A stretch of DNA of 64,000 bases from an uncultured Clostridia bacterium (GTDB taxonomy: Bacteria; Bacillota; Clostridia; Christensenellales; UBA1242). The stretch lies in NCBI GenBank assembly GCA_944383415.1, contig CALWPK010000001.1:11261-75260 (forward strand), read 5' to 3'. The notes under the pieces were generated by a model. The model was given only the letters and a program-made list of their open reading frames with translations, had not been told where the DNA came from and made no database searches. Positions within the stretch are counted from its first letter, which is position 1. Each line of letters starts with the position of its first letter. The position numbers and the translations under genes are program-made. Shown piece after piece: positions 28,092-60,842 of the stretch.

Positions 28092-28106
28092 TTTTAGCAT
28101 AAAGAA

Positions 28107-28478: not shown

Positions 28479-28503
28479 AATTTATCTCCTTTTAAATTAG
28501 TCT

Positions 28504-28992: not shown

Positions 28993-29146
28993 TTTAATCC
29001 TCCTTTATGCTATTAAATAAAAATTCCTTTTGCCAAGACAAAAGGAACTCAATATATCGACATTCTTTTCTCTTCCTACACAAGCAACTAATGTTTTACG
29101 CTCTCGCACTTGTGGTCTTTGGCTAGAATTTTATTTAACTTGTATT
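28993..29146 (-). promoter_or_regulatory. L10 (rplJ) leader with an intrinsic attenuator hairpin
   Basis: ~150-nt leader between the promoter and the GTG. Minus strand reads TTCCTTTTG-tcttgg-CAAAAGGAA (29047..29024), then TTTTT, just before the SD. This is the arrangement of Firmicute L10-leader autoregulatory RNAs. Confidence 0.6.
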
Positions 29147-29332: not shown

Positions 29333-30385
29333 ATGAAAAGAAAAAAATCAAGTACGTCAAAAGACGAACAAGTTTTTTACAAAAGAAAAGGGGAAAGATT
29401 AATACCAAAGATGATTAATGAGAAAATTGCAACTATAGCACTAGCAGGCACTCTCGTGCTTGGTGTGGCAGGTCTCGCAGGATGCAATAACGACATCTCA
29501 AAGGTCAATCCTCCAAATCAAGTGGATCCTGATACCGGATATTCGCAACTGGTCACCGATCTGGCAGAAAATGATTATTACAATAGTTTGATACGTAAAG
29601 CAGCAAACGATCCAGATGTATTAAATGGTCCATCTTTTGATCCTCATCCTTATGGATTTTTGGAAGATCAAGGTATCGATACTGATGGCATCAAAAAGGG
29701 TAATCTAGAGTGCAAGACGATCTCTTTCACAAGGAAAGAAGAACCCAACAATCTATACATAATGACCTATGCTGAACAAGATTCTTCTAAACCTTACTTC
29801 AACGAATATATGATTCGTTATACTCTATCTGATAGTGAAATGGAAGATTACAAATATCTTCACGAAAACCATTATATCCAAGCACAATTTATTAATGATT
29901 TCATATCGCAGGAAAAAGATCCCGAGATCCTGAGTTATACCAAGATGAGCGTCAATGCACATAAAAATTTGGCAGATAGTTTGGGTGACGGATCACTAGA
30001 TCCTTTCGTAAAGGATATCGTGAGGACGAATAATATTGATTTCGTGCTAAAGGAGTATTCTCAAGAAACTGGGCTATTCACTGTATATCTATTCCCGAAA
30101 CTGGAACTAACTTCTTCGATGAACACTAATGATAAATTTGCTGAACTTCGCCTAACTCAACATCTTACCCCTATCACTATTGAAAACGATATATTTATGG
30201 ATCCTAGTACCTCTGCAGGTTTCTTACCTAATGTTTTATCTGATGAATATCCTACCTATGAAGATTGGAAGAATGCTACGCAAACAGTTGAATATTATTC
30301 AAATCAGACCACAAGATTAAATTTGAAATTGCCTAATGTGACTGATGAAATAAATGAAATCAAGGCTAATATCGACGTAAAATAA
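29333..30385 (+). CDS. Putative lipoprotein (350 aa), function unknown
   Basis: AAGGAG SD. Signal peptide with canonical lipobox ...LVLGVAGLAG-C-NN. The mature part is Asp/Asn/Tyr-rich with no recognised domain. Confidence 0.8.
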   Translation: MKRKKSSTSKDEQVFYKRKGERLIPKMINEKIATIALAGTLVLGVAGLAGCNNDISKVNPPNQVDPDTGYSQLVTDLAENDYYNSLIRKAANDPDVLNGPSFDPHPYGFLEDQGIDTDGIKKGNLECKTISFTRKEEPNNLYIMTYAEQDSSKPYFNEYMIRYTLSDSEMEDYKYLHENHYIQAQFINDFISQEKDPEILSYTKMSVNAHKNLADSLGDGSLDPFVKDIVRTNNIDFVLKEYSQETGLFTVYLFPKLELTSSMNTNDKFAELRLTQHLTPITIENDIFMDPSTSAGFLPNVLSDEYPTYEDWKNATQTVEYYSNQTTRLNLKLPNVTDEINEIKANIDVK

Positions 30386-30396
30386 TCAAATTGATA

Positions 30397-30431
30397 TAAA
30401 AAATTGTAGATCGAAATCTACAATTTTTTTT
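30397..30431. terminator. Bidirectional terminator shared by the convergent lipoprotein gene and giant gene
   Basis: An A-run, then attgtagat - cgaa - atctacaat, then T8. It ends 3 nt before the giant gene stop codon. Confidence 0.85.
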
Positions 30432-30433: not shown

Positions 30434-33400
30434 TTAATACACATTGATCGAGCCGGCATTTCCACCCATTCCGATTGATCCATTCGTGTCAGAAGCAATC
30501 TTTGACAATGTTTTTCCTCCACCGAACGTAATCTTCACTCTCTCAACAAATATAGTCGTGTGTCCGATATTTGGAGAGCCCGAATATCCTTCTAGATTTT
30601 GAATTGATGGAACTAAATAGTATCCGCTCTTTTCTGCTACCTTGGTCCCCTCTTCAGTATTTCCGTCTCCGCTCAATTCTTTGATATATCGTGTCCACTC
30701 CTCTGTCAGTTGAGATTGCGTAGTGCCTTCTTGAATCGAATAACGATATCTAGTATACAAATTGATCTTTGGATAAGTAGCAAATTTGTTGAAATTGTAA
30801 TTCATATTTGAAGCATTAATATATTTGATCGTAATTGAACTAAGGATACCTGTAGTCTCATCTAATACGTATGAAGAACTAATTTGATACCATAGATTCT
30901 CATCCGTATCATAGATATATAAGTCGGTCAATCGGACAAGTTCTTCTTCTTCTTCTTGCGTGGTGTCGTCTGCTATCAGATCTGCCACATAGTATTCATC
31001 AAGGATAGATGTACTGCCCTCTATCTCTACATAAGATGCCAGATCCGCCAATGTATAAGTCGCACTATCTGACCCATCATCTTTCGTGGATAGATTGATA
31101 GTGATAGCATCGTAATATGTCGAACTCGTGTCGTTTAGGTTGTAATTTTCTAGCACGGTGTAGACTCTGTCCTCGCCATCACTATTCGCTTTCACCTGAT
31201 ATCCGCCATCATAATAGTAGTATGTGACAGCCTGTGTGATCGTAGGACTGGTAGATGCAGAATTAGACACTAAAGTATACAAATTGCTATCCTTAGAATT
31301 GCTGATAGTGCTTTCATAAGGGTCTATGAACCCATAAGGATACAACTTGATGTCATAACTCGTTCCTGAAGATGGCGGAGCAGATAGTGCTGGAATGCTA
31401 GAATATATCAATGCTGAATCGAAATCTGCACTGTTAGATATGCTTGAGATGTAGAAGTAATATATCTCTGGATCTAACACGGTAGTTGTGCCATCATCAT
31501 TTTCAATAATCTGATAATATGGAACGCTGATATAATCTATTCCATATCTTTCATCATTAGAAGGTTCTCTATTTTGATAGACGAATCTACCTACCTTTTG
31601 CTCAGCATTATCTATATTTGTACCAGACGCTGTGTAGTATGCTCCTTCGAAATAGTCATAGCCTAATAGAGAGATTGATCTATCAAAGGCTTCTGTATTA
31701 ATCGTATATTGATAGTCTACATTTTTCGTAGGGGTGGCACCTCTGAGGGATGTGAATTGCTTGCTCTCATCTATCGTGTAATAGTATGAGCCGTTGTATT
31801 TCAGATTGTTCGTAGGGTATGCACTTTCATAGTCTCCGCTAGGACCTATATCGCCTATAGAATATGTGCCAGTCGTATCGTCAAAGATACCATAGACATA
31901 TATATACCCATACCTTTGAGGATCAATTTTATAAGCACCTCGCCGTTCAGTCAAGACGCCAGAGACATTGATCATTTCTTCTATGAAGAAAGGTTGTGCT
32001 GGAGTGGTATCTACCTGCCCTGCCTCAACACTGATGTAATACATTCCGTTGATATAAATATAGGTCGGAAGAACAAAATACTCATTCCCTGCCGTATCTT
32101 CAGCGTAATAATAGCCAGCATCTTGAATCGCAGAAATGATCTCTTCGCTATTCGAACCTGAAATAGATATATCTTCATCTGTAGGAGAATAAATAATAGT
32201 CAAACTGCCTCTAGACATTAGTGAAGTATGTGCCTCCTCCATCCCGAGATTATCAACAGGTGTAGCAGTGTAATAATGAGAATAATAGTCGTTCGGTCTA
32301 GTCGATGAGAAGGCAGAGTATATATTGCCATAGTCGTCTACATATAAATAATCAAAAGTATCATCAATGACACCATTGGTGTAATTAATATTCCTTGAAT
32401 AAGAAGATGATAATACGCCGAAGTTTTGATCCTTTTGCTCCAAAAACATAGTCTTTGAAATCTGTTGTGACAAGAAATGCTGATTCAATATATTCACACC
32501 TACTGTAACTGAGACAGCAAGCATTGAAACTAATGTCGTTCTCCCTAATACTCTCAATAATTTCTTAAGTCCAGTCTTGGCTCCGCTTTTGACTACATTA
32601 TTGAGCATATTCCCAGCGAATTTACCTGCTGCTGCCAAAGGCCCTGCCACGCCAAGAGATGCCGCCAAAAGTGCAACATCAAATGCTACTGACAAGCCAA
32701 ACATTACCCAACCGAAGACATCTACAGCATTAGCATTTGCCTGCAATGCCGCCGCCTGAGAAGTAGAAAATCCGCTGACTTCGAAGATTGAACCAGATCT
32801 TGGCAAATCATAACTGACTTGCTCAACATAAGTATTGTCTCCTGCCTTCAATCCTGCCAAAGTAGCATTGTCATACACTACTGAGAATACGAAGTATGCA
32901 CCAGTATGATTTCTACCATAGGTGGCATCACCAGCAAGAGATTCATCTCCCTGCATATAGTCGCTCACGTAATATGATATGAATCGCCAACTATTGGGTT
33001 GATTTTGATAACTAACATTTCTTGGCTCCTCACTGCCACCCAATGATGTATAATCCTTGTCCCAAATGAAATAGGTCAATCCCTGATTGTTGTTCGCACT
33101 GTTGTTCATATCAAGGTAGTACAACGATTTTGGACTCTCTGTGACCAGTGCTCCCAAAATATAATCCAAAGCACTTGGTGCTCCGTCCTCAAGAGTCTTG
33201 TATCCTGAAGCGTTCTCTTCTTCTGTATTGTTTATCTCTGGGACAGCAATACCCATAGCAGAGTATAGACTTGGCGAGCCTTCCTCATCTTCATATACGG
33301 TGAAACATATATAATTAGGATTATAGTAATACAAAGTGTCGCTAAACTTTCCCACTAATTTCAACGAATTGTATTCGCGCACTGCCTCCAAATCGGTTGC

Positions 33401-36400
33401 CGATGGTTCGATTACTCGTGTTCCATTAGCATTCATTTCGAGATGAGTTGAATTTTCTACAATGCTGACCACCTCGTTCCAATCTTCTATATTGCCGTTG
33501 AGTCGAGTATTTTCCAATTCTAAATTTTTGATTGTGCCAACGTGTGTGATATTCGCCGCATCATAAATCACTGCTAATGAATCCCAGCCTATATCATCCG
33601 CTTGAGGTATGCAACGCTGGATCATCCTAAATGCCGTGTAATCTTTGTGCCAACCTTTTGCACTAGAATTGATAGGATTGTGCGCATCTTCTGAATAGAA
33701 TGATTCATTTGACGAACCTGCGATATTGAGTACATCCAGATTGATATAATAAGCCTGTGCCACCATAATTACTGAACCTTCTTCGCTCTGATCATCTACA
33801 TCAAAGTATGATTCTCCATCCGCGTAGTTGCTATTTTCTACAATGTTAATCGTGAATGGATAGTGATGTGTGCCCATTACATTTGCGGTGAAATTCCTAC
33901 CTGTATATGGCAATTTCAGCATACCTATGAAGCCTCCAAAGTTGGTCGCACTACCCACATCGTCATAAGATCCGCTGTCTGTAACATATATGTTATCTGA
34001 GATATTACCCAAGAAATTACCTTCATTATTTCTATTGCTAGTGAATTCTAATTTCCCAATCAGACCTCCAATATAGTATGAAGAATCTGTATCAATACTG
34101 ATCTTAACTGAGGACTCTTCAATAGTCAATTCGGCGTCATTTGAGACTAATTTTCCGAACAGACCGCCGACATACATTCCTGTATATTTCGACTGAATGT
34201 TAATCGTGCCTTGACCATTCGCATCAGCGAGTGAATATTGACTCAAATTCGCCGTTCCTTCATAGTATCCCAAAATTCCGCCTATGTTGTATCCTCCGTC
34301 TACGCTGACGTCACTCAATAATTCTGGAGTTATTATCAAAGTCTCAGTCGCGTCTACAGTCGTTGAATCAGAGGCATAATAAAAGCCATAATATGCACCT
34401 ACGTTGACGCCAAGTTGTGCATCGACGTTCGCTTGAACCTTGTTGCTCTCTATCGCTCTCAAGCCTCCGCTGACAGTGTGTGTCACGTCAGACATCACAG
34501 AGCCAATGAATCCGCCGAAGCCCGATGTCATTTCGTTGAAGTCGGTAGTAGCCTCAGATACATAAGAGTTTTCGTCATTATAACTATAATATTCAAATGC
34601 TTCGGTTGGATCGTTCGGATTAGTAGTACCCCCTCCGAAATAGAATTCCACCATATTGTTTGAAATAGTAGATACAGTGATATTATTCCCATCATCGTAC
34701 AAGACATCGCCTTCATTAGTTGAAAGCACATTAGTGTCATACACACAATTGTTCTGAACAGTGCCCGCCTCTGCCGTGCCAATGAATCCTCCCACACTGG
34801 TAGGAATATAGTATTCATAACCAGTCTGGACTATGCCATACTCTATGGTAGACATTCCTATTGCTAAATATATTCCTTTGACTTCTAGGAGTTGCTCGTT
34901 TTCTATAGTGGTATCACTAGAATTTTGTTTTGCTACAATATTGCCATCTATTACTGAATTTGCATTGTTGATGTATCCTACAAAACCGCCCACACTAGCA
35001 TTGCCATAGACATTCGCCTCAGTCCAGATGTTGCTAGCAACGTCTCCTTCAAAGTGTCCGAATGCACCACCGACATTCACCGCTCCTACTACTTTACCTG
35101 TGGAGGACACTGAGTTGCCACTTAATTCATACAGTTCGCCTTCCGATCCGTCTGCAATGCAGAGTTCGTAATTTGAATCATAATATTGATTTCCTGCTTC
35201 AATATTGGATGTTGGGACGAATTCAATTGTGTTCTCTACCGTCACATTTTCACCGACATAACCTATCAATCCGCCGACATTTTGATAACCAGTGATGATG
35301 TCCGCACTATTTTTGATATTCACAATCTTGACATCGGCATTTGATACTACATAACCTATTGTTCCGCCTACATTTACCATACGGATCGTATTGTCCACTT
35401 GTGCCCCTACGGCAACGTTGAGGTCGAATTCTGAGTTGTCATTATTTATTCCCCAAATGCTACCCGATTCTGAATTCGGTCCGATCAGTGAGGTATCTGA
35501 ATTCTCTAGATTTTCTACCAAAGTCGTATCTTCGCTGATGCGTCCAGCAATTCCGCCGATATTGTAGATATATTTCGTATCCTCACCTGGCGTGCTACCG
35601 ACTAGGATCAGATTGTTGCCTGTAATGGTTGCCGTATCCGAATCACCTTCTCCTGTGACGAAATCATTTGCTTGATATCTCAGTTCGCCTTTCTTGTAAT
35701 AACCGAACAGTCCGCCCCAGTTGAAGCGATTGTTGTAGCCTTGCTGATCTGCGTAAATTGTCGCATAAGTCACATCTGAGGTGAGGAAATCAAAGTAAGT
35801 CGTACCGTCTCCAGAATTGGTCAATATGATGTCACTGATATCTTCACTACCATTTTCGCTGACTAGTCCTACCGCTCCACCGACATTGGTGGTACCATAG
35901 AGTTTCACACTGTATAGATTGTCCTCATTGTGCACTATTCCAATACTACCCGATTCGTAGACTCCTACGATTCCACCCAAGTTGTAAGTATTGACAGCGT
36001 GCAGTTCTGGTAGGGTCATATCTATGCCATAATTAAATATCAAGTTCGCATTTCCACTCAATTTCCCTGCCAACATTCCTACGCCTTGCGTGTTTTCTTT
36101 GCTAGCAGTGTAGTTGACGCCCTCTTGCGTGTTACCCAACTGAGCAGTCGTCTCATAAGTGACTTTCAGTGAATTTTCCTCACCAGTGAAGTAGAAATCT
36201 TGAACATTCAATGTTCCGCCACCGACTTTTGCTGACAGCAAGCCAAAATAGTTGCCGACTTCAACGTCAGTGTTTGTATCTGTAGTGATAGTCAATCCCT
36301 GTTCACCCAAATCTAATCCACAGTTTTCAAAATTGATAGTTGAATTATTAAGGTCGACCATATCTATGCTCATCTGAGCCACGAGCCCACCAAATACACT

Positions 36401-39400
36401 GATTTTGTTTGGAGTCTCAGCCCCAGCATTAGTTCCGCCTTGATTCAAGACTACAGTCAAATTAGAGATCGTAGCCACTGCCTCAGCATCATCTCCTACC
36501 ACAGCACCGACAATACCTCCCAATGTTGATACTCCACCCTCTGTTGTGAAGATATTGACTTTGTTGTTCGAACCAGTTTCATTCGCTTTGTACGCGCTGG
36601 CGTCTATATTTGGCGTAAAGTTGTCTATATATCCTATCAGTCCGCCTGCATAACTTATATTTTCTCCAAATCTCACGTAGAATGAATCCTTAGTTCCGTT
36701 CAATCCTTCAACATTTGTTAATCCATCAGGAGTGAAACCAAGTTTCAGATTGCCAGATTCTACCTTACCTGCTATCAATCCCGCAAAGTCTGCTGAATTG
36801 ATGGTCAAATTTGGGCGAACCGAGCCAACTTCGTCAGAATTGTACGTCACAAAGTCTTTTACGCTCACATTGCCAGACGAGATCACACCAAACAAGCCTG
36901 ATACATATCCAGAACCTGCAATTTGTGTGTTTTGTACTATTTCAATTTTGTCCACAATTACATTGTCGGCAGTTTGTTCATCTTCTACGTCAGGATTGAT
37001 GTTTTCGCCGAGCAAGCCAGCGTTCTCTAGCGTTTCGTTTGAACCGCCCAGTTTGAGATAGCCGAAATATGCATCTTTTATATTTGCAAACACACTGCCA
37101 TTTAGTCCGCTGATCTGACAAGCGTTCTCCAAACTCAACTCAGAGAATGCGTAATTCTTATTCGAAATGAAGAATCCAGCGAATGATGCTTGAGAGCCGT
37201 TGTAGAAAGCGTTTGCTTGTGCATTTTCATTCGCACTTCCCACAGGGCTCCAATCCAAATGCGTTCCGTTCGTAATCCTTGCATTTATGTCATAAATCAG
37301 TACGTAATATAATGAGGTATTCGCACCTGTAAATGTAGGACTTTCCGCATTGTCGCCATAATCCATAGCCAAACTTTGAATCGCTGATAGCAATCCTAAG
37401 TGAGGTATACGCATCAAATTGGCTTTCGTAGATTCGGACAATTCACTCGTCGAACTCAATGCATTCACCACGTCTTCATAACCTTGTCCCAAATCAATAG
37501 ATATTGACCCAGTCCCTGTATAGAGTTGATAATAATTATCGAAATATTCATACGAATTCGGATCAGTCCAATCGGTGAATTCATCCACTACCATCTTGTC
37601 AATCCTTACGGTAGGATACAGATAGTTGTAGCCAAACGTTTTGCTGTCTCTATCTATCAAATAATAATTGTTATCGATCTTGCGCGTGGTATAATACCAC
37701 TTTCCGTCCTCAAATCCGTCCAACACTTCTGCCGACATTAATGTGGCGGTATTGATTGTAGACAATATCGTAATATTTGTTTCTTCGTTCGTGATATTAA
37801 ACTGCTCAATATTTGCTAGCGAATCAACATAGTTGTTTGCACCCATCAATCCGCTAAGATTTGCAATAAATGAATTGCCTTGCGTAGAGATAGATTCTAT
37901 CACACCTGTAGAATACGTGTTGTATATGAAATTGTTTGCAAAGTTTTGCTGATTGCCTTCAGACACATTTTCTATCACAATACCCGCAGATACTGCGCTG
38001 ACAGCCGTAGTATCTCCAGTTTGAGTGACGTTGTTGATATATCCAGTGAAGTAGCAAGACAGGATCATTCCTTGATTCTGATACGTAATGCCCGCTATTG
38101 AACTAGCCGAAACTTGTACTACTTCCAATGACGAATATGAATATGAAATCAGTCCAGAATTTCTTCCCGCAATGAGACCCAAATTGTTCGAACTGATCTT
38201 TGCGCCTGTGCCTTGAATCGAACTGTTGAAAATCACACCTTCGTTTAATCCTGCTATCACGCCAGATATATTGCCCGAACCTAAATCGTAAGCGTTGTCT
38301 GAAGAAAGTTTGATATGCAGATTTGAGATCGCACTATGCCTATTTACTTTCGGAATAATTCCGCTGAATGTGCCCTCAGTGCTTGAATATACAGAACTAC
38401 TAATAAATTGGGTATATTCAGTCTCTCCACCTATCAGTATGCCGTTCAATGCTCCGCCCGCTTCCCCTGTGGCACGAATACTGTCTGTGATGTTGTTTGA
38501 TAGAATATAATATTTGAATTCATCATCACTTGAAACTAGCACATTCATATTGCCACTATCAATGATTGTAGGGTTGAGTGCACTCAATAGATAACTATAA
38601 GTATTGTCCGTTTGCCTTAAAATTCCATAATTCACCAATTGAGCGCTAAGGCTAGCAATGTATGGCAAATAATACGATCCTGAAGAAGAATTCAATTCTC
38701 CCCAAAAACCATTCCTTGAATTCAATCCGTTGTTTGTGTCCAATCTCCAAGCGTTGTTTCTAGTGAGAGTGTATGCGGATAGGTTGTACCCCGCTCCGCT
38801 CTCTTCTGAGAACAGTGCATAATCTGAAGAATAATATACATATTCAGTAGAAACGACATTGATCGCTCCGAACAATGCATTGATGTTGAGAGCCTGTATT
38901 GCTTGATAATCTATGCTATCTATTATTATGCTTGTCAACGAATATGCATTAATTATTGTCGCATTTTCTGCCTGACCTATGAATCCACCAATGTAGAAAT
39001 GATTGTTCGTATGATCGTCTGAATATGCTGTGATAGGCACGATCCTACCCGTACTTGCGAAGTTTGTCGCAGTGACAAGATTTGCCTGCCCTACCATACT
39101 GCCCGCATATAAACGCGTGGTCGTGACACTGCCGACAATGATGTCTGTGGTGGTCATAACCTCATTAATAGAAAGTCCACTATCATCACCAGCATAAGCC
39201 ACCACACCACTGGCGTAGACATTCCTTAGATCGCTATCTACACCTTCGCTATCCTCAGTGCTTATCGTACCAGTGAAGAGTGATTGATTGATAGAAAGCA
39301 TTGATTCATTATAACTTTCTGCAATTGCCACCCCGCTCGACAGATACAGGTTTGTAATCTGTGTGTTGCCCAAAACATTTATATTTGATGAAGTGTTCGC

Positions 39401-45400: not shown

Positions 45401-48400
45401 GTCAAACAATTCTACGATATAATCTACACCAGCATTTTCTAATAGATCCTCTAGTTCGTCCTGCCCTGAAATCACGTCCATTGTAAGATTGATGCTGTCT
45501 TTGTTTTCTTCACGTAGCATTACAGTATTATTCACGGTATAATCAGGAGCAAAACCGCTCTCTTCTTCGCCTACATATCCAGTATATAGTTTTACGCCCA
45601 AATTGATATTTGCGCTCGTTTCTACCGAATTGTCTCCATCATCAATCTCTATATTTGTGGCAGTTTTGTATATGACAACTCTTAGATTTGAACTAGCCAA
45701 TTCAAGATATTGATCCACTCCTTCCACTTGAGGATAGAATTGTTCGCCAAAATATTCGGTTAGATTCAACCTAAGAGTGAAGGTGATCATCTCTGTAGTC
45801 AAATTACCATCAAAATTGTCGTCTTCTACCTGAACCATAATGCCGTTGGTCGAATTCGCATTCACTATGTTCAAAATTGAATTTCCGCTATTCGAAACAG
45901 CCTCAACTTGCAGATAGTTGTTTATGCCAGCATCTAGAATTGATGCAAATTCCTGCCCTTGATAGATATTCTCTGCCATAATGCTCACCAGAGTCGGATT
46001 GGCTCCCGTATGAGTATACAATTCAAAGTCCACACCATCTTCATCGACCGAATATATCGAATTCGATGTCAGCATCAAATCGCTGAGTCCGAGTTGTGTG
46101 AAGAATACAACATATTCCTCCAATTCATCATTAAATATCGAATAACATCTAACGATTATAGGATTGGCACCACTCACGCCAGTGAATACGATTTGATTTT
46201 GTGCATTGATATAAGCATAAGCCGATCCTCGCACTATCTCGAATCTCACGCCTCCTTGTGCATTCGATGGAATGACGTTTAGATCAACTAGCCCATTCGG
46301 TGTATTACCATCCGATGCTGTGTTGACTATATTGTACCTATTGTATGTTTCATTATTCAAAGGATTGTTCACATCGCTATGATAGTTGACTATGGTCGTG
46401 CTACTCACCGCATATTCATTGATTGAATAATCTTTGTCTACGAAAGAAGAATTGATTTCGATGACATAATTTGCATTGATACTCGCCTGAATTTCTGTAG
46501 GGCGTTCTATCATTAGAATGTTGCCCTGATCGTCAAGTAGATATGGGAAATAAAAATTCATTCCATATATTGACACGAAATTACGCTCTGAACTAATAGC
46601 CCATTGATTCGAATCTGCACCTATCCACGTCAAAACTGTACTTTCCCAGATGTTGTCGCTTGATTTCCAAGCGAGTTCATAATAGGTAGTATTTATATTA
46701 ATGTTAGAATTATCGTTCTTGATATAATCACTATTCTCATCTAGTGTATAATAATCTCTAATATTGACATTTTCTATTGAATAATATGTGACATTAGGAT
46801 TGAAATTAAAATCTGTGAGTGCAAGCAAATACCCCTCGCTATTTGCGACATACAGACTCGCTCTATTGTTCTGCCACAAATTGTTGTCAAATAGATAGTA
46901 TGTAGCGTTTTCGTCAAACAATGCGTCACTTGCGACACGAGAATATACGCCATCAGTTGAAATGTATAGATATTCTCTTTGGCTATCAAATTCTTCGCTC
47001 GTGATATCGGTTTCTTGCAAAAATTGTTGCGTTGAATATAATTCTTCTCTATTTATGACTCTCACATCGAAATACTGAGACAGATCTAATTCGTTCGGAG
47101 TATTTGCATTGAAATCTATGATTGAATTATCAGTATAAACGACATAGTAGCCTGCATTTGTGTCACGAGAATAGATATTGCTTTGGATCATATCAATATT
47201 GTTCACTCTGCCCAAGAAATACACATTGAATTCGTTTGCATTCGACGTCAATATGATTGTTTTAAGATCTGATATAGTATCCAAATTCGTATCGATATTT
47301 GCCGACACAAATGAATTGCTTAGCGTCGTGTTTGAAGCGGTGTATATTAGCCCCGCCACATTATTTCGTGTGCTATACAGCATATAGAAAGTCTCTTCAG
47401 CACCACTAGAGGTCGTCGTATTTGAAATGAAACTTTCTACACTGGCGAATGTGATGGTATCTCTTTCAGAATCTGCAACGATACCTGCCACATTTCCCTG
47501 ACCTGAGATCACACCATAAGAAGTCAGTCCTTGATCAAAACTCACTTTTGATGCCAGTACGCGAACGTCCGTGATCATAGAACCTATAGACTGCCCGACG
47601 ATTCCCGCAACTGCCAGATATGAATTGTCTGCATATAGATCCAATCCCAACACTGCTACCGTTTCAATTCCCTTCACGCTGACAGAAGACCCTGCATTAT
47701 CATCAGAATATCCTGCAATACCTGCCACGAATCCTGAGATTTCACGCATATTTGCGACATTTTTATTGTCTGTGACACGAATGAAACCGCCTGAAATTAA
47801 ATTGTGGATATATCCACCTAAGTTGTATCCTACGACCGAACCCATATATAATGTCGGAGTGTTTGTTGCGGAATTGATCAGGACAATATTCGCAATGACT
47901 GAATAGTCCACGTTATTCAAACTATTTTTGCCCAAGTATGCTCCATAAATTTCGCCCAAATTTTTACCCGCAACCATACCGATATTGTGCTGAACTGCAG
48001 TATTGGTATAAATTGAAATTTGCGAGTCTGCATTCACGATAGATGAGGTGAGATCAATATAGCCCGAATTTATTCCCACCACTCCACCAAAATTGATTGG
48101 TGTAGATATTTTGTCCGTAGCGAAATAGATATTGTCTTGACTGCCTCCAAGTAGTGTCACATTGACATCTCGAATCATCCCGCCCTCATTCGCTCCTGCT
48201 ATCGCTCCGATATTCAATTCTCCACCAGCGGTAGAAGTGAAATTTGATAGGTCAAAATTTACGTCAATATCCAGATCTGATATCACAGCCTCTGAACCAA
48301 GTCGCGTGAACAAGCCGGCGTATACGCTATTGTTTGTGTTCAACACATAGTTTTTCAAATTTAATGTGATTTTGTATCTTGTCGTCACTATTTCATTGTC

Positions 48401-51400
48401 TGAATTGAGATTTTCCACCGTGCCAGTAAGTGTGCCGTTGAAGGCATTTTCTCCACCGATAGGTGCTACTGAAACAGTTTGACCGTCTATCACGATATCT
48501 CCAACTGTAATATTGTTGCGCAACACATAGTCTGCATCCAAATTGTTGTTGATATTATATAGATCTTCTATGTCATTAATGATATATTTGTTCTGTGGTG
48601 TACCATCGCTAATTGATATGAATAAGGAGCGTGTGGTGGTATATGCTTGAATTGTAGGATCGTACGAATCTAGACTCGCCAGTTCCAATCTGAACAAACC
48701 GCCACCCAATGTCTGTGAGGCACGTATTGTGACCAGATGTGTATCAGGATTAATAGTAATATTGAGTCTATTTGAAGTGACAGCGTCCTCAAGTGCTTGA
48801 CCATTTTCGTCTCTAACTATATTCCCATCTTCATCTTGACGTATTTGATATAAGTTATAAGTCAAGTCTCCGCGCCTTAGTCCTGTGGCAATATTTGATT
48901 CATAATAAGGTGTAGCAGTAAACTCTGCTGATGTATTTCCGTTCTCAGGTACGTCTATAAATGACATATACACATAATAACTATCCACACCATTTTGAAC
49001 AATGCTATTGCCAGATAATGAGATTCCTGCCACAGGTTCGTGCTCTGCAAATTCGATCGTTGCAGAGATCGCGGTGTTCGATTCTACGCCGAATCTCAAT
49101 GCTGTCAAACTGATAGTCAAACTATTGTAATCGCTCACTCCGTTCAATTTCACTCTCAAAGTGCCCGCCAATATGTTTTCCGAACCTATCTTCAATATGC
49201 TTTCATCTGTTATTGCGACCTCTTCACCATCTTCATTGACTAGATAGATCTCTATAGTGTTATCGATTTCTAGATCTCGATTGATCTCAAGTCTGAGTTG
49301 CGATGCGTCTGTCTTCACGATCTCTGTGCCATCAGGACCGCTAAATACCACGCTATTTGAAGCGGCTGAATAGTTTGAAGCGTAAGAAGCAAAGGTTATT
49401 TCGCTAGTTGACGCACTCTCATAATACTCATTGATGTAGACGATTTCATCCGCTGAGATTGTCCTATATATCTCAGAGATAGGGTCATACACCGCAATAT
49501 CTGCAAATATGATTTGATTCGTGAGCAGTATTATATCGTTTATCTTTGCATAATAACTGACATTAATGGTCAAGACTGTAGTTTTTGCGCCTATTTGACC
49601 TGTCAGACTGAATTCGTTGGTATCCAATTTGTTGTAACTCAATGCTGAGGTGCTGAAATTGTTGTTCCCACCATAATTTGAGTCAAAATCAGCATTTGCG
49701 TCGATTGTAAAATTGACTATACCCGTATCGTTCAAGACCGATCCGCCCTGCACTCTTGCTAAAATGCTAAATTCGACCAATTGATTCTTCGCTACAGCGA
49801 AATTGAAATGCCCATTATCGATATCGTCAAATGTAGTGACATTCCTGCTTGACGACTGAACTGATATACTATCCTCTTGCAACAAATATACGCTATTGAC
49901 GGCAAATCCTGTATCTACTCCTACACTACCTTCGCCTGCGCTGACTGTGATATTGGCAGTTTCTAGCGCTGAAGTGTTCAAGAATGACACGCGGAATAAA
50001 TCATATTTAGCATTGGCATCTGTCTGTGCTATTTGCAATCGTTCAACCGTTGGGTCGTTCAACAAAATTGAAGTTGAATTGTTTTCGAACCTGATTAAAG
50101 GATTGTCGCTTTGCAAACGAATGGACGATGTTTCAAGAGTGGTGCCAGTATAGTAGACTTTCACATAAGCATCTGTCGAGTTTGTTGCGTCAATATTCAA
50201 AACGCTATTAGTTATAGGTGCTGTCTGACTCTCATCTGCATATATCTCAATGCTGTCTGCAGTGACCACTTTCCTCAACCTATACGAAATCTCCACAAAT
50301 CGCTGGGAGATTACTTGATTTTCAAACATAGTTGGAGTCACCTGCGTACTGAAAGTGATGATTTGATCGGCATCTACGTTTGCTCTGATACTGATATAAA
50401 TGGTGCTACCACTCTTCAGCACATAAGTATTTGAGCCGAGATTTTCAACCTCACCAGTGATTATCACATTTTCATTGCCTGTGATATATATATCTGTATT
50501 TTGATTGGCATTTGCAGGCACGGCGAGCAATGTCAGACTCAATCCTTGATATGCAGTACTATTCGAACTATATATTATACCTTCCATACTGCCCTTAGAA
50601 TCAATCAATTCGGGCAACACATCGTTTATTGAAATGTTTTCAGGCAATACACTTTTGTTTATCACGATCTCTCGCGAATAATTGGGAGCATTTGATGCCG
50701 AAAAATCTAAATCATTCAATTCATAAGTAATCTTAACCGTGTTGGTAGGATAACTATCGCTAGTGGAGGTCAGTCTGATTTGAGTATTGCTTTCGTTTAA
50801 TCTTTCGACTAGCAATCCATTGATGACCTGAGAAGTCGATAGGTCTACAAGTTTTCCATCCACATAAACACATATTTCATAATTCACTTGATCGTTTTGA
50901 TTGATGGTATTGATCGGAGTTTTGTATACGCTTATCAGTTCTTGCGTGTCAATCGTTAAACTCGTCGAAGCATAATTTTCGTTTTCATTATATAATGTAA
51001 GACTATGTTCCAATTCCTCTTGAGTCGGATCGCTTGAATAGTAAACAGATGGTACAAAATCTTGTTCCTCTACCAAATATACATCAAATTCTGCTGTGAT
51101 ATTAGGGTTGTGTTTTGAAGTGGCAGACACACGAACAATATGTTCGTTAGCATTGATTGTGAGGTTTGAATTGACTGTCAATACGCCATTCTCACTAATG
51201 GATATATATTGCAATGCATACGTGTCGTTTCTCACTAAAATAAATTCGTTTTGACCGTCTTGATTTGTTTGATTTGAATAATAACCTATACCTAAAATTT
51301 GATAGTCTACACCAGTTTGATTCGTAAGAGTGTTTCCGTTCTGCATTGGCAAATAATATAGATTTTTAAGGCTCATCAAACTAATCATATCTCCCACTTT

Positions 51401-51910
51401 CACTGCGGGCTTGATCGAAGTGTCCACTTGAATTCCTGTCAGGCTTCGATATATAGATAAATCAATGTCGAAATGCCTACCAGATTCAGTTTCATAAAAT
51501 CTAAGAGAAGAATTTATATTTCCTCTGATATCAATATTGAACACTTCATTTTGCTCTACTGTAATAGATGAAGAATTGATTCCTCCAGAAGATGGAAAAT
51601 TGATTCCTTCGCTCGCGCCTCTTTTTGTAACGATGATTTCATCAATATATTTCGATTTCACATTAGATATTTTAACTTTTATATAGAGGGTGCCGACTCC
51701 AGTTTCTTCTGAGATTTGAAATTCATCCTCCTCTCCACCATAGTTTAGTTCAATGCCGTTCGTGGCATCATACCACTCGCTAGCATCTTCACTGAAGGCA
51801 TAATATATTTTGAATTTCATATCTTCATATCTATCACCACACGCAGAAAAAACTCCGCACATAACGAAGATAAATACTGCTGTCAAAATGCTAAATATTT
51901 TCTTTTTCAT
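30434..51910 (-). CDS. Giant modular surface lipoprotein (7,158 aa) with multiple GLUG-like beta-helix modules, an internal TM hairpin and a Tyr-rich C-terminal domain
   Basis: Uninterrupted 21,477-nt ORF. GTGAGGGG SD. MKKKIFSILTAVFIFVMCGVFSAC-GD is a lipobox-like signal. There are repeated entry segments followed by arrays of G-G-[LIVF]-[VIA]-G turns. Hydrophobic pair VFGWVMFGLSVAFDVALLAASLGVAGPLAAA / TTLVSMLAVSVTVGVNIL lies at about aa 6395-6475. Confidence 0.9.
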   Translation of the reverse strand: MKKKIFSILTAVFIFVMCGVFSACGDRYEDMKFKIYYAFSEDASEWYDATNGIELNYGGEEDEFQISEETGVGTLYIKVKISNVKSKYIDEIIVTKRGASEGINFPSSGGINSSSITVEQNEVFNIDIRGNINSSLRFYETESGRHFDIDLSIYRSLTGIQVDTSIKPAVKVGDMISLMSLKNLYYLPMQNGNTLTNQTGVDYQILGIGYYSNQTNQDGQNEFILVRNDTYALQYISISENGVLTVNSNLTINANEHIVRVSATSKHNPNITAEFDVYLVEEQDFVPSVYYSSDPTQEELEHSLTLYNENENYASTSLTIDTQELISVYKTPINTINQNDQVNYEICVYVDGKLVDLSTSQVINGLLVERLNESNTQIRLTSTSDSYPTNTVKITYELNDLDFSASNAPNYSREIVINKSVLPENISINDVLPELIDSKGSMEGIIYSSNSTAYQGLSLTLLAVPANANQNTDIYITGNENVIITGEVENLGSNTYVLKSGSTIYISIRANVDADQIITFSTQVTPTMFENQVISQRFVEISYRLRKVVTADSIEIYADESQTAPITNSVLNIDATNSTDAYVKVYYTGTTLETSSIRLQSDNPLIRFENNSTSILLNDPTVERLQIAQTDANAKYDLFRVSFLNTSALETANITVSAGEGSVGVDTGFAVNSVYLLQEDSISVQSSSRNVTTFDDIDNGHFNFAVAKNQLVEFSILARVQGGSVLNDTGIVNFTIDANADFDSNYGGNNNFSTSALSYNKLDTNEFSLTGQIGAKTTVLTINVSYYAKINDIILLTNQIIFADIAVYDPISEIYRTISADEIVYINEYYESASTSEITFASYASNYSAASNSVVFSGPDGTEIVKTDASQLRLEINRDLEIDNTIEIYLVNEDGEEVAITDESILKIGSENILAGTLRVKLNGVSDYNSLTISLTALRFGVESNTAISATIEFAEHEPVAGISLSGNSIVQNGVDSYYVYMSFIDVPENGNTSAEFTATPYYESNIATGLRRGDLTYNLYQIRQDEDGNIVRDENGQALEDAVTSNRLNITINPDTHLVTIRASQTLGGGLFRLELASLDSYDPTIQAYTTTRSLFISISDGTPQNKYIINDIEDLYNINNNLDADYVLRNNITVGDIVIDGQTVSVAPIGGENAFNGTLTGTVENLNSDNEIVTTRYKITLNLKNYVLNTNNSVYAGLFTRLGSEAVISDLDIDVNFDLSNFTSTAGGELNIGAIAGANEGGMIRDVNVTLLGGSQDNIYFATDKISTPINFGGVVGINSGYIDLTSSIVNADSQISIYTNTAVQHNIGMVAGKNLGEIYGAYLGKNSLNNVDYSVIANIVLINSATNTPTLYMGSVVGYNLGGYIHNLISGGFIRVTDNKNVANMREISGFVAGIAGYSDDNAGSSVSVKGIETVAVLGLDLYADNSYLAVAGIVGQSIGSMITDVRVLASKVSFDQGLTSYGVISGQGNVAGIVADSERDTITFASVESFISNTTTSSGAEETFYMLYSTRNNVAGLIYTASNTTLSNSFVSANIDTNLDTISDLKTIILTSNANEFNVYFLGRVNNIDMIQSNIYSRDTNAGYYVVYTDNSIIDFNANTPNELDLSQYFDVRVINREELYSTQQFLQETDITSEEFDSQREYLYISTDGVYSRVASDALFDENATYYLFDNNLWQNNRASLYVANSEGYLLALTDFNFNPNVTYYSIENVNIRDYYTLDENSDYIKNDNSNININTTYYELAWKSSDNIWESTVLTWIGADSNQWAISSERNFVSIYGMNFYFPYLLDDQGNILMIERPTEIQASINANYVIEINSSFVDKDYSINEYAVSSTTIVNYHSDVNNPLNNETYNRYNIVNTASDGNTPNGLVDLNVIPSNAQGGVRFEIVRGSAYAYINAQNQIVFTGVSGANPIIVRCYSIFNDELEEYVVFFTQLGLSDLMLTSNSIYSVDEDGVDFELYTHTGANPTLVSIMAENIYQGQEFASILDAGINNYLQVEAVSNSGNSILNIVNANSTNGIMVQVEDDNFDGNLTTEMITFTLRLNLTEYFGEQFYPQVEGVDQYLELASSNLRVVIYKTATNIEIDDGDNSVETSANINLGVKLYTGYVGEEESGFAPDYTVNNTVMLREENKDSINLTMDVISGQDELEDLLENAGVDYIVELFDFDIYYSLLTIGNGEVQGYQYSIEMSLKDQFEFRYITSNIEFRLTVYGANNTTITDSVLITFRPTELSTVRIENYTATNVTTITNYTSLIESNATETSIISPGGYGGVMMVYLEPSYSNILSATLTSSTLYIPSLGRNVSIIFEQLVKNENGDYETVYPNNETVNGGIKLRLVSSVDRSGNYSYNGIIYIHTQMDRFVGMTGTIEAKLTVNTNDGKTIEQTKTLITEYLPGATLSYDGISVGTDEYLIQKDTYNNEVNIRIYGYQFNSNPRVNFVWKLNDGDTNYTYDKRLATDVNETNFEERKLSLYTLDNGIYQKCDEDSSFVLGQVYYEDNRNVVIDNHGNNYNILDYVSYRFLDNFDQVTQNSDGSYSMTILLNVAPNIPAGFEMNATLTLATSESLITSEQEDSLIFYPVDYILNSVFASNLTNGSLNIAYNRSSSINLSFETNNPNNDLSDSVYNKLLQDIGVDNLASLFMYMNSNGEIVQFSDPAESHPEFSINIVNGRLTITGQDAFYRTVEFSVHYGYVLENGQYVLKFGTMSSNSLNQTLEFSFTLNIYASTTEENAIPIYSVDDIFNPDTGECILGEDADYILMNDIVLENFVPIDVDIASLDGNNKVIKIRSFAVSVDRSEYGLFANIGTYQDIYDVTQTTILKNVIVDYSEFDTSLNLTNNDITSVTFGGLVAVNNGLIYNCDVLNLGTSTKTINILLDNDSDVEIVFGGLVGRNTGIITNSRVGRLGYTKITANENSETSVQQGGSPLQFVIGNNSSISQSGQGFVGITAGFVGKNMGTIASSYVVNTGLTNYSTAPEGTGDSYSITAGFVGENSGDISFSYVKALESTISETNPYSTGVEIYSPTNGNVAGFVYLNSGNINNSFANTVLTSTSAYVAGFVYNNQSSGVISESYSASTLNGVFTANDASEQPFVGVSSSDELLSFGRLENTYYLIDENNSFIVKTESGKDQATGLNQDSFNVSDNLNGFVFIASNSRTERNQGVWSYYNQNNSFRILPELTNANQIAHSYRYLLRQENSVYYYSNAVSYLPGSVNNPNIIRSVEEYNEIMLSGDTLDSMTGYVRFINDIDFASDETAIKTRVNFTLGDENNNSITSIEGNGMTISGIYLDVGNAEEKSIGLFAQVVNSYVKNLNLEFATTAETDGQFSSLSAIYSGGLAGRIDNSVIINIDLNGSNTTISGQNFAGGLAGMITGSSLIYGIDSNLSVKAVNTDTNHYYNYYSEQDFNTMRAFGAINYTGSYADYLTRLSFAGGIAGVIDLDTRQYVDFNLSYINVYGNEMYDKREIDANILADYAGGIAGYAGRETTSLRLKYFVGQTNLIRGQYAVGGIFAVSSGDITASQVTAEEDEQFVYDTKLGEYILDLENGEEAVLDTTKTGNLNLLETYGYGGGLIGISISSRLDSCYSKAGFKVGSTIGGLIGVSIGANIIYSYAVPYVNVDDTYLMKVGGLIGSAYGSRSGVVDRNEEVSEYINYLTLIMGETNKNTDIQFTFSTILMDVNDITTKNTVTQDYINFDYICADYGQFDGNSTGYLTSNNGSALLYVFAGRVGAYDSITDGGESIVKHSNEARASDEEIKLLYDTSEDNVEQVSTFNNIFSGWDTRYWTLNAERYFPLLLNEEVENYTIIETADDFYQLVNDPDGSFMIVNDIDMTEWCARNNSNFIFDIEFTGVLIGQKEDDSIPILYNLFLNPMNAEDAGLFRSTSEATLRNITFEWGSNINEMNVADVSSSVILGNTIDTFGGVSALDNGSLFSNLTVRVTNENSSTNTGRETSLFNSNNGTIAGFGGIVGRATNSNILNCTFSGRVDVTLSSMGTNSSIHFGGLVAESDILENPENEDEEVNMTIMNSTVGIDNTNTTNAIERTVFNLNIANGANAYIGGAVGYASNTSIASITVGHYAYETNYRRITFNINLDNSNANNYFGGAIGGLEGSQLSTIDAITEVNISGSENRAIEDTSTTSYINAYAGLVGYYTIAGSGSSNLSITSANTSSNINVLGNTQITNLYLSSGVAIAESYNESMLSINQSLFTGTISTEDSEGVDSDLRNVYASGVVAYAGDDSGLSINEVMTTTDIIVGSVTTTRLYAGSMVGQANLVTATNFASTGRIVPITAYSDDHTNNHFYIGGFIGQAENATIINAYSLTSIIIDSIDYQAIQALNINALFGAINVVSTEYVYYSSDYALFSEESGAGYNLSAYTLTRNNAWRLDTNNGLNSRNGFWGELNSSSGSYYLPYIASLSAQLVNYGILRQTDNTYSYLLSALNPTIIDSGNMNVLVSSDDEFKYYILSNNITDSIRATGEAGGALNGILIGGETEYTQFISSSVYSSTEGTFSGIIPKVNRHSAISNLHIKLSSDNAYDLGSGNISGVIAGLNEGVIFNSSIQGTGAKISSNNLGLIAGRNSGLISYSYSSLEVVQVSASSIAGITYQNQGMILSCYFTGYINNVTQTGDTTAVSAVSAGIVIENVSEGNQQNFANNFIYNTYSTGVIESISTQGNSFIANLSGLMGANNYVDSLANIEQFNITNEETNITILSTINTATLMSAEVLDGFEDGKWYYTTRKIDNNYYLIDRDSKTFGYNYLYPTVRIDKMVVDEFTDWTDPNSYEYFDNYYQLYTGTGSISIDLGQGYEDVVNALSSTSELSESTKANLMRIPHLGLLSAIQSLAMDYGDNAESPTFTGANTSLYYVLIYDINARITNGTHLDWSPVGSANENAQANAFYNGSQASFAGFFISNKNYAFSELSLENACQISGLNGSVFANIKDAYFGYLKLGGSNETLENAGLLGENINPDVEDEQTADNVIVDKIEIVQNTQIAGSGYVSGLFGVISSGNVSVKDFVTYNSDEVGSVRPNLTINSADFAGLIAGKVESGNLKLGFTPDGLTNVEGLNGTKDSFYVRFGENISYAGGLIGYIDNFTPNIDASAYKANETGSNNKVNIFTTEGGVSTLGGIVGAVVGDDAEAVATISNLTVVLNQGGTNAGAETPNKISVFGGLVAQMSIDMVDLNNSTINFENCGLDLGEQGLTITTDTNTDVEVGNYFGLLSAKVGGGTLNVQDFYFTGEENSLKVTYETTAQLGNTQEGVNYTASKENTQGVGMLAGKLSGNANLIFNYGIDMTLPELHAVNTYNLGGIVGVYESGSIGIVHNEDNLYSVKLYGTTNVGGAVGLVSENGSEDISDIILTNSGDGTTYFDFLTSDVTYATIYADQQGYNNRFNWGGLFGYYKKGELRYQANDFVTGEGDSDTATITGNNLILVGSTPGEDTKYIYNIGGIAGRISEDTTLVENLENSDTSLIGPNSESGSIWGINNDNSEFDLNVAVGAQVDNTIRMVNVGGTIGYVVSNADVKIVNIKNSADIITGYQNVGGLIGYVGENVTVENTIEFVPTSNIEAGNQYYDSNYELCIADGSEGELYELSGNSVSSTGKVVGAVNVGGAFGHFEGDVASNIWTEANVYGNASVGGFVGYINNANSVIDGNIVAKQNSSDTTIENEQLLEVKGIYLAIGMSTIEYGIVQTGYEYYIPTSVGGFIGTAEAGTVQNNCVYDTNVLSTNEGDVLYDDGNNITVSTISNNMVEFYFGGGTTNPNDPTEAFEYYSYNDENSYVSEATTDFNEMTSGFGGFIGSVMSDVTHTVSGGLRAIESNKVQANVDAQLGVNVGAYYGFYYASDSTTVDATETLIITPELLSDVSVDGGYNIGGILGYYEGTANLSQYSLADANGQGTINIQSKYTGMYVGGLFGKLVSNDAELTIEESSVKISIDTDSSYYIGGLIGKLEFTSNRNNEGNFLGNISDNIYVTDSGSYDDVGSATNFGGFIGMLKLPYTGRNFTANVMGTHHYPFTINIVENSNYADGESYFDVDDQSEEGSVIMVAQAYYINLDVLNIAGSSNESFYSEDAHNPINSSAKGWHKDYTAFRMIQRCIPQADDIGWDSLAVIYDAANITHVGTIKNLELENTRLNGNIEDWNEVVSIVENSTHLEMNANGTRVIEPSATDLEAVREYNSLKLVGKFSDTLYYYNPNYICFTVYEDEEGSPSLYSAMGIAVPEINNTEEENASGYKTLEDGAPSALDYILGALVTESPKSLYYLDMNNSANNNQGLTYFIWDKDYTSLGGSEEPRNVSYQNQPNSWRFISYYVSDYMQGDESLAGDATYGRNHTGAYFVFSVVYDNATLAGLKAGDNTYVEQVSYDLPRSGSIFEVSGFSTSQAAALQANANAVDVFGWVMFGLSVAFDVALLAASLGVAGPLAAAGKFAGNMLNNVVKSGAKTGLKKLLRVLGRTTLVSMLAVSVTVGVNILNQHFLSQQISKTMFLEQKDQNFGVLSSSYSRNINYTNGVIDDTFDYLYVDDYGNIYSAFSSTRPNDYYSHYYTATPVDNLGMEEAHTSLMSRGSLTIIYSPTDEDISISGSNSEEIISAIQDAGYYYAEDTAGNEYFVLPTYIYINGMYYISVEAGQVDTTPAQPFFIEEMINVSGVLTERRGAYKIDPQRYGYIYVYGIFDDTTGTYSIGDIGPSGDYESAYPTNNLKYNGSYYYTIDESKQFTSLRGATPTKNVDYQYTINTEAFDRSISLLGYDYFEGAYYTASGTNIDNAEQKVGRFVYQNREPSNDERYGIDYISVPYYQIIENDDGTTTVLDPEIYYFYISSISNSADFDSALIYSSIPALSAPPSSGTSYDIKLYPYGFIDPYESTISNSKDSNLYTLVSNSASTSPTITQAVTYYYYDGGYQVKANSDGEDRVYTVLENYNLNDTSSTYYDAITINLSTKDDGSDSATYTLADLASYVEIEGSTSILDEYYVADLIADDTTQEEEEELVRLTDLYIYDTDENLWYQISSSYVLDETTGILSSITIKYINASNMNYNFNKFATYPKINLYTRYRYSIQEGTTQSQLTEEWTRYIKELSGDGNTEEGTKVAEKSGYYLVPSIQNLEGYSGSPNIGHTTIFVERVKITFGGGKTLSKIASDTNGSIGMGGNAGSINVY

Positions 51911-51956
51911 AACCCCTCACTTTTAATTTGTGCCAATGCGTAAATATTATAATTAA

Positions 51957-51986
51957 ATTATATAAAATAATAGGGAATTAAGTCAA
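51957..51986 (-). promoter_or_regulatory. Candidate promoter of the giant gene
   Basis: Minus strand reads TTGACT (51986..51981), 18 nt, TATAAT (51962..51957). The region is AT-rich, so alternative -10 boxes exist. Confidence 0.45.
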
Positions 51987-52201: not shown

Positions 52202-52234
52202 TTAATAAAATTTTTAAATTTTTTTGGAGTGAAT

Positions 52235-56525: not shown

Positions 56526-56535
56526 ACTTCACCCC

Positions 56536-60831: not shown

Positions 60832-60842
60832 CTGTTCTCCTT

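Follow-up and report, generated by a model that had tools for sequence, protein, structure and literature searches.

The locus described here raised the question of what a single uninterrupted open reading frame (ORF) of 7,158 codons encodes and what its product could do for the cell. The window, i.e., the whole 64,000-nucleotide (nt) stretch of contig CALWPK010000001.1 that was analysed, carried this giant gene on its minus strand at positions 30434..51910, from an ATG start to a TAA stop. The longest rival ORF across it encoded 260 amino acids (aa; 39678..40460, plus strand), and the gene took up 33.6% of the window, so that the frame, its length, the 260-aa rival and the share of about one third described in an earlier sequence-only reading of this DNA were all reproduced. 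The mature product had a predicted mass of about 778 kDa and a pI of 4.1. Our preferred answer, to which we assigned a probability of about 0.55, was that the giant protein serves as an adhesin or contact fibre of giant size, tethered twice to the membrane, for attachment to partner cells or gut surfaces.

The reality of the gene was supported by its DNA and by its copies within the species. No tandem repeats were found in the DNA of the giant gene, and its longest direct repeats were two chance 31-mers. Self-comparison of the protein detected only about 24% identity, between the entry segments of three of the modules described below (A, B and D). Therefore, the giant gene contained nothing that was able to collapse in assembly, and both a recent repeat expansion and an assembly collapse were ruled out. 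Using exact-match anchors from the neighbouring proteins SufC and L10, we found 13 further contigs, each belonging to this species and drawn from different samples. The giant gene was intact in 11 of these independent assemblies (7,137-7,159 aa), cut by the contig end in one and split in one, and the copies were 95-100% identical to the window protein. Moreover, the ratio of nonsynonymous to synonymous polymorphism (pN/pS) within the species was 0.12-0.18 over the first 2,300 codons. Thus, the continuity of the frame was confirmed, and the giant ORF is a genuine gene under purifying selection within the species. The split copy (contig L030, 1-8558) encoded 5,491 + 1,643 aa with a frameshift near aa 5490, and the gene call in a contig of a related species (L020) ended at 4,005 aa, at a point where the representative genome of that species (L007) was open. 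These two cases were either strain-level pseudogenes or assembly errors.

The family extended beyond this species. In a set of 1.84 billion proteins, only 22 cluster representatives matched the last 1,058 aa, and most of them were fragments of very long proteins. A word-index protein search with the same 1,058 aa, and also with aa 5500-5760, gave no match; since relatives exist, this family seems to lie beyond the reach of the word index. A scan of related species with one genome per species yielded 12 loci, all from metagenome-assembled genomes of uncultured Clostridia (BRZ and Lapin series) or of Candidatus Onthoplasma from chicken, which the NCBI taxonomy places in Christensenellales. The frame was open across all available upstream flank in 12 of 12 loci (up to 4,173 aa), and 11 of them were collinear with aa ~2850-7150 of the window protein, or with the portion of it present at the locus, at 30-60% identity. 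The twelfth (L013) aligned over aa 5174-6920 only, at 28% identity. The 5' end of the gene was reached through homologues of its divergent upstream neighbour TtcA. Gene calls in four further species were 6,675, 6,695, 6,771 and 7,055 aa long and collinear with the window protein, and two other calls were cut by the contig end or ended at 4,005 aa (the possible disruption in L020). The first 3,230 aa were collinear in relatives at 80%, 68% and 30-44% identity. Two species were represented at both ends of the gene (L019 is the same species as L014, and L020 the same as L007), and their stitched proteins came to a total of ~7,070-7,090 aa. The gene order was conserved as well: ttcA, the giant gene, a convergent 350-aa gene, rplJ-rplL and, further along, comF, recD2 and the gene of a 1,087-aa GLUG protein. 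Judged from these sequences, the giant gene is single-copy, located at a fixed locus and conserved in all sampled uncultured gut relatives from Christensenellales. The conserved chromosomal position between ttcA and rplJ also ruled out a prophage tail fibre.

The interior of the protein was dominated by clusters of one turn motif. The motif core ([GA][GA][LIVFM][LIVFAT][GA]) occurred in 38 copies, compared to 2.4 +/- 1.6 in shuffled sequences, and was confined to six clusters, which we named modules A to F. A purpose-built hidden Markov model (HMM) of the motif found no copies beyond those of the regular expression. The sequence-only reading had proposed at least five such modules built on G-G-[LIVF]-[VIA]-G turns, and the motif and the modules held, with an extra module starting from aa ~4460. 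The four entry segments that it quoted were indeed present at aa 1113, 2758, 3226 and 3813 (nt 48574, 43639, 42235 and 40474), and the one near nt 37400 was the start of module F (aa ~4850). On the other hand, the turns were spaced by 27-45 aa and not by 20-25 aa as was proposed, and the layout of about 1,100 aa followed by modules was correct except for a second motif-free stretch (aa 1571-2730) that separated module A from module B.

The assignment of these modules to the GLUG family was upheld in part. The curated gathering score of Pfam GLUG (PF07581) is 20.5 bits, and it was exceeded by module D (30.0-32.8 bits) and by one tile of module F (aa 4950-5749, 23.6 bits). Modules A (17.3 bits), B, C and E were under the cut-off or undetected, and module F scanned as a whole reached 14.5 bits. 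For module E, a tile covering aa 4243-5042 scored 19.6 bits, with its best stretch inside module D, and a Pfam scan of the module alone gave no match. A weak Peptidase_M26_N match was located on the entry of module D (16 bits, cut-off 27.7). In the last 4,100 aa of the 12 relatives, GLUG was likewise the sole Pfam family, with a weak Peptidase_M26_N. The rest of the protein was almost free of annotation: Pfam had no match in the N-terminal 3,230 aa of the proteins from four species, Big, FN3 and other Ig-like families had none in the first 1,100 aa of the window protein and three orthologues, which the sequence-only reading had described as beta-sandwich-like, and the sole match of aa 25-1100 was a sub-threshold PLAT (E 0.02-0.05). 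An NCBIfam scan of the giant protein gave only noise, and sequence and profile searches against PDB matched no chain.

The modules were related to each other by distant homology. BLAST aligned the entry segments of A, B and D at the identity given above, hhalign matched D with F over 194 columns (probability 93.7%, E 2e-7), and the entry of D matched the entry of C with a probability of 63% (E 7e-5). These profile matches indicated that the modules were ancient duplicates rather than recent repeats. Modules A, B, C and E were tied to D solely through such BLAST or profile matches of the entry segments. Across species, module C was the best conserved portion within the sampled C-terminal ~4,300 aa.

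Module F was also modelled with AlphaFold2 using eight homologues (aa 4850-6049). The model was all-beta with many short repeated strands (pLDDT 68.5, pTM 0.78). The 30 best Foldseek matches in PDB were mainly right-handed beta-helix proteins, all with E > 2, including glycosidases, lyases, tailspikes, autotransporter passengers, pertactin, Fap2 and RsaA, as well as an IgA1 protease and a putative IgA1 protease (7jgj, 3n6z). Among the predicted viral structures in BFVD there was one significant match with a low TM-score, i.e., a poor superposition, and many others were tailspike or pectate-lyase-like proteins. These matches support the fold class only, namely a predicted beta-solenoid or right-handed beta-helix for module F. 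From this one modelled module we infer a solenoid fold for all six, and the beta-helix that the sequence-only reading had proposed for the whole repeat region was thus backed in module F by an all-beta model and weak fold matches.

Both ends of the chain appeared to be attached to the membrane. The N-terminus MKKKIFSILTAVFIFVMCGVFSAC, followed by GD, matched a PROSITE-style lipobox pattern (MKKK...VFSAC, with the cysteine at position 24), and a lipobox [LF][ST]AC at Cys23/24 was kept in six other species. Neither lgt nor lspA was present in the 64-kb window. Just three segments of the 7,158-aa chain were hydrophobic: the signal peptide, aa ~6399-6421 and aa ~6458-6478. The latter two were joined by a loop of 29 residues with a charge of +7 (seven basic residues, no acidic ones), and both large flanking parts of the protein had a pI of ~4.1. 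A hydrophobic region was found at this position in 12 of 12 relatives, and an otherwise poor AlphaFold2 model of the C-terminal 908 aa (pLDDT 41.6) contained long helices there. By the positive-inside rule, the basic loop predicts an out-in-out hairpin, so that the last 680 aa would also be located outside the cell. Therefore, the chain was predicted to be tethered at both ends and not only as a lipoprotein: the earlier description as a surface lipoprotein was right about the lipobox and missed the hairpin and the ~680-aa domain behind it. This C-terminal domain carried conserved motifs (YPxSFxNPY, TYYYYDGGY, LYTRYKY and TTxFVExVxVxLGGG) and is without known relatives. The only LPxTG-like string was internal (aa 6000) and the protein ended in ...GSINVY, unlike an LPXTG sorting signal.

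The giant protein evolved much faster than its surroundings. Between species it was 30-60% identical, versus 78-98% for the neighbouring genes. In the comparison with the sister species (L014/L019), whose neighbouring proteins were 88-98% identical, identity was 67-91% over the first 4,100 aa, about 70-76% over aa 4,100-5,300, 46-60% over aa 5,300-6,100 and 23-37% over the last ~1,000 aa. The module region of the window protein was clearly nearest to that of L014; its juxtamembrane and C-terminal parts were equidistant from those of all species, whereas L014-L007, L008-L012 and L017-L015 stayed closer pairs. This pattern suggests that the C-terminal third either diverged very fast or was replaced through recombination. 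Among eight contigs of the window species, in contrast, the C-terminal part was 95-100% identical.

A similar behaviour was observed for the convergent lipoprotein gene, which lay directly downstream of the giant gene in 12 of 12 related loci and had a lipobox in 11 of 12 orthologues. Its product was 22-45% identical between species and nearly invariant within the species, and three of its closest pairs were also the closest pairs of the C-terminal domain. It had no Pfam or NCBIfam family, and an exact-sequence database look-up gave no match. This lipoprotein is a possible partner of the C-terminal domain. The features of the locus are collected in Table 1.

Table 1. Features of the giant gene and its immediate flanks (window positions).
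Feature	Positions	Strand	Remarks
Candidate sigma-70-type promoter	51957..51986	-	TTGACT-18-TATAAT, 11/12 matches
Shine-Dalgarno sequence GTGAGGGG	51913..51920	-	ends 2 nt ahead of ATG
Lipoprotein signal peptide, aa 1-23, and lipobox Cys24	51839..51910	-	PROSITE-style pattern
N-terminal region, aa 25-1100	48611..51838	-	without GLUG motif or recognisable domain
GLUG-type module A, aa 1101-1570	47201..48610	-	motif cluster; Pfam GLUG under cut-off
Middle region, aa 1571-2730	43721..47200	-	without GLUG motif or recognisable domain
GLUG-type module B, aa 2731-3214	42269..43720	-	motif cluster; Pfam GLUG undetected
GLUG-type module C, aa 3215-3800	40511..42268	-	motif cluster; entry aligns with module D
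GLUG-type module D, aa 3801-4455	38546..40510	-	Pfam GLUG above cut-off
Module E, aa 4456-4850	37361..38545	-	weakest GLUG signal; conserved and collinear in relatives
GLUG-type module F, aa 4851-6050	33761..37360	-	largest; GLUG in tile 8, hhalign, AlphaFold2
Juxtamembrane region, aa 6051-6395	32726..33760	-	conserved family motifs; fast-diverging; tree conflicts with module tree
Membrane hairpin, aa 6396-6479	32474..32725	-	two hydrophobic helices and basic loop
C-terminal domain, aa 6480-7158 (~680 aa)	30437..32473	-	11.6% Tyr; tail ...TTxFVExVxVxLGGG conserved
Candidate bidirectional terminator	30398..30429		hairpin between giant gene and convergent lipoprotein gene
Convergent 350-aa lipoprotein gene	29333..30385	+	lipobox LAGC; shares hairpin terminator with giant gene

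The control signals that had been noticed around the gene were found again. The spacer between ttcA and the giant gene was 320 nt long with ~26% G+C, and this AT-rich spacer held 6 promoter-like sites, compared to 4.3 expected from shuffles. Since this was no excess, the promoter stayed a candidate only. The GAGGGG core of the Shine-Dalgarno sequence was retained upstream of the orthologues at six loci of other species (L019-L024). The putative terminator was a hairpin with a 14-bp A/U-rich stem flanked by an A-run and a U-run, starting a few nt past the stop of the giant gene (-12.8 kcal/mol, z = -4.2, matched by 0 of 200 shuffles). A terminator consensus scanner failed on this hairpin because its stem had fewer than three G-C pairs.

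The lineage of the organism bears on what such a protein might do. Onthoplasma belongs to the GTDB family UBA1242 (Christensenellales), with genomes of ~0.7-1 Mb, mostly below 1 Mb (PMC12306168, 2025). Members of this family are without amino-acid, nucleotide and lipid biosynthesis, have an incomplete glycolysis and no standard transporters, and retain sporulation genes; they have been predicted to be obligate symbionts or parasites that depend on a partner, and the only possible interaction factors mentioned for them were unnamed 'hypothetical membrane-bound proteins' (PMC12306168). The genes around the giant gene fit this lineage: RecD2 and TtcA were 78-80% identical to Onthoplasma loci, and SpoIIID was adjacent. 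If the genome is 0.8-0.9 Mb, then the giant gene makes up 2.3-2.7% of it. A gene of 20-21.5 kb that is kept at a fixed locus despite genome reduction is an obvious candidate for an attachment or interface function.

According to the adhesin model, Sec would export the chain via its lipoprotein-type signal peptide and Cys24 would be lipidated; here the motif and its conservation were observed and the processing was predicted. About 6,370 residues would then be located outside the cell, with six right-handed beta-helix modules of the GLUG type and, in addition, two stretches of ~1,100 aa each that carry no annotation. The chain would dip into the membrane as a two-helix hairpin with its basic loop facing the cytoplasm and would end in a second extracellular domain, tyrosine-rich and ~680 aa long. 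The long ectodomain would thus be membrane-tethered at both ends, and the fast-diverging C-terminal part together with the adjacent lipoprotein may set specificity. We favoured an adhesin because beta-helix surface proteins are typically binding stalks, because the giant protein evolves much faster than its neighbours with divergence concentrated in one region, and because the lineage was predicted to be contact-dependent on other cells.

A number of observations weighed against this model. Pfam and NCBIfam scans of the giant protein detected no recognisable binding domain, and the PDB fold matches of the module F model were all non-significant. Many adhesins vary in repeat number and presence; the collinear, single-copy core-gene behaviour of the giant gene was atypical of them and fits a structural envelope protein equally well. 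For a fibre that reaches far from the cell, being tethered at each end would be an unusual design. The split copy and the 4,005-aa call may mean that loss of the gene is tolerated, if they are not assembly errors. Finally, the placement of the window organism in a reduced-genome family was deduced from protein identity to Onthoplasma loci.

A bolder version of the adhesin model would make the giant protein the main cell-to-cell contact device of these partner-dependent reduced-genome Firmicutes, with the C-terminal domain and the lipoprotein as an exchangeable partner-specificity module. We regarded this version as speculative and rather improbable. If true, its role would be comparable to that of the attachment machinery of CPR/Patescibacteria, and the giant protein is in any case a concrete, testable candidate for a Patescibacteria-like lifestyle in Firmicutes.

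The alternative that survived best was a structural envelope component, such as a coat, a sheath or an S-layer-like scaffold, that lies along the surface and, instead of binding a particular target, shapes or protects the envelope. It would account for a core gene that is present in one copy, stays at one locus and keeps its length and module order in all sampled species, for the tethering at both ends and for a very acidic, cysteine-poor composition as in many surface-layer proteins; the S-layer protein RsaA was also among the weak fold matches. However, that match was non-significant, no SLH or other wall-binding or S-layer domain matched in the window protein or its relatives (Pfam and NCBIfam), and the fast divergence at one end suggests an interaction surface and not a lattice. 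We considered this explanation unlikely.

It was also conceivable, with a low probability, that the protein forms a surface array of beta-helix carbohydrate-active enzymes (lyases, glycosidases or depolymerases) that degrade glycans or partner walls. The weak fold matches included GH55, GH110, PL6, pectate lyase and phage depolymerases, and the reduced-genome relatives must take nutrients from outside. Nevertheless, Pfam and NCBIfam matched no enzyme family, either in the window protein or in as many as 12 relatives, and the sequence showed no catalytic motif, with HExxH absent from all 7,158 aa. The fold matches, all with E > 2 in PDB, reflect a solenoid that binding proteins have as well.

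An even smaller chance was left to a contact-dependent effector similar to polymorphic toxins, in which a beta-helix stalk delivers a variable C-terminal domain and the neighbouring gene encodes a partner or immunity protein. The last ~1,100 aa were 23-41% identical in sister species, compared to 59-87% for the modules and 88-98% for the flanking genes, the C-terminal tree conflicted with the module tree, and the next gene was equally hyperdivergent. However, the polymorphism expected of such toxins and of CdiA was lacking, since the C-terminus did not vary among strains in the eight same-species contigs, and throughout the family it was one homologous domain with invariant motifs rather than a set of unrelated cassettes. 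Furthermore, Pfam and NCBIfam matched no toxin family, a membrane hairpin preceded the domain, and the downstream gene was convergent and encoded an exported lipoprotein and not a cytoplasmic immunity protein. Finally, an artefact was hardly credible, whether from chimerism or collapse during assembly or from a pseudogene in decay whose frame is still open by chance, because the split copy in L030 and the short call in a related species stood against 11 intact assemblies, DNA without collapsible repeats, purifying selection and full-length orthologues, collinear with the window protein, from no fewer than six other species.

Several other genes of the window were of interest in their own right. 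The gene divergent from the giant gene (52229-52957, plus strand) was the PP-loop gene ttcA (tRNA 2-thiocytidine synthetase); its identification as TilS was rejected on the basis of the database names of close homologues, which were TtcA. The 1,087-aa protein (16168-19431, minus strand) was signal-anchored with two GLUG/M26_N-type modules (Pfam Peptidase_M26_N 37.7 bits) and resembled a smaller paralogue of the giant surface protein, with 35-62% identity in relatives. At the other end, a cluster at 55737-63968 (minus strand) that ran past the window end surrounded an archaeal/SipW-type signal peptidase (60250-60831; TIGR02228, 54.4 bits). It included a protein running off the window, whose length in sister contigs is 2,986 aa, as well as an exported protein of 792 aa and a pair of ~225-aa proteins whose N-termini (...AYFTAS and ...NSWFTSG) resembled TasA/camelysin-type SipW substrates. 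The cluster was conserved in related species (L019-L023) and may build a second surface fibre. A 531-aa protein (25640-27235, minus strand) with a weak, sub-threshold HipA_C kinase-like match (27.6 bits) was 98% identical in the sister species, far above its neighbours. The only Rfam match in the window was a ribosomal protein L10 leader upstream of rplJ (29009-29140, minus strand; RF00557, 55.6 bits), and no tRNA genes were found in the window. The 179-aa ORF at 27961-28500 (plus strand) was spurious, being antisense to rplL (L7/L12, 123 aa), which was called in all sister contigs.

Among the known systems, the GLUG beta-helix regions of Firmicute surface proteins, among them the N-terminal region of the streptococcal M26 IgA1 or Zmp metalloproteases (PF07581, PF05342), shared the G-G-[LIVF]-[VIA]-G turn motif and the same type of entry segment with the giant protein, including the weak Peptidase_M26_N on the entry of module D. 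The beta-solenoid predicted for module F agreed with this similarity, with 7jgj and 3n6z among its weak fold matches. Unlike these proteases, the giant protein had six modules instead of one, was without a metalloprotease domain, HExxH and a C-terminal LPXTG, and would be anchored by a lipobox and a membrane hairpin. In the absence of an M26 catalytic match and of HExxH, and with M26_N under its cut-off, an M26 metalloprotease was ruled out.

Another similar case was that of Giant1-5 of Apilactobacillus kunkeei, which are extracellular proteins of 3,000-8,000 aa that occupy a large share of the small genome of a host-associated Firmicute (PMC12863079). They have a Sec/SPI signal, a beta-solenoid element and a presumed role in surface interaction, and their bodies consist of alpha-helical repeats (Giant1-3) followed by C-terminal DUF5776/SH3b-like wall-binding domains without a transmembrane segment (PMC12863079). 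The giant protein was similar in its size, N-terminal signal, beta-solenoid element and genome share, and it differed by the lipobox, a non-repetitive body, the membrane hairpin and an unrelated C-terminal domain. Accordingly, Pfam detected no DUF5776 in it, there were no sequence repeats, and the modelled module was all-beta.

The beta-helix adhesins of diderm bacteria (the autotransporter passengers Hbp, EspP, pertactin and Fap2, as well as filaments of the FHA/CdiA type) would share a long right-handed beta-helix surface stalk with the giant protein, a likeness that rests on weak, non-significant fold matches. In contrast to them, the giant protein was without a beta-barrel translocator or a TpsB partner, and its membrane anchoring was different. 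The Firmicute host is presumably monoderm.

The giant proteins of Omnitrophota and other ultra-small bacteria that depend on partners exceed 30,000 aa, have many transmembrane regions and SecA-like domains, and were proposed to function in attachment (bioRxiv 10.1101/2023.11.21.568195). The protein described here resembled them in being very large, mostly unannotated and, by prediction, largely extracellular, in a lineage with a small genome and a suspected dependence on partners; it was otherwise distinct, since it is 7,158 aa long, has three hydrophobic segments and lacks SecA-like domains. The pairing of a lipobox with a late hairpin was described in none of the papers found, and neither was the C-terminal domain or a core family at a fixed locus in a reduced-genome lineage. 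Thus, the giant protein is akin to other beta-helix surface proteins of giant size, with which it has the GLUG motif in common, and giant surface proteins as such were already familiar; what was new is an almost wholly unannotated protein family, in which only GLUG was recognised, with an unusual topology of a lipobox and a late membrane hairpin.

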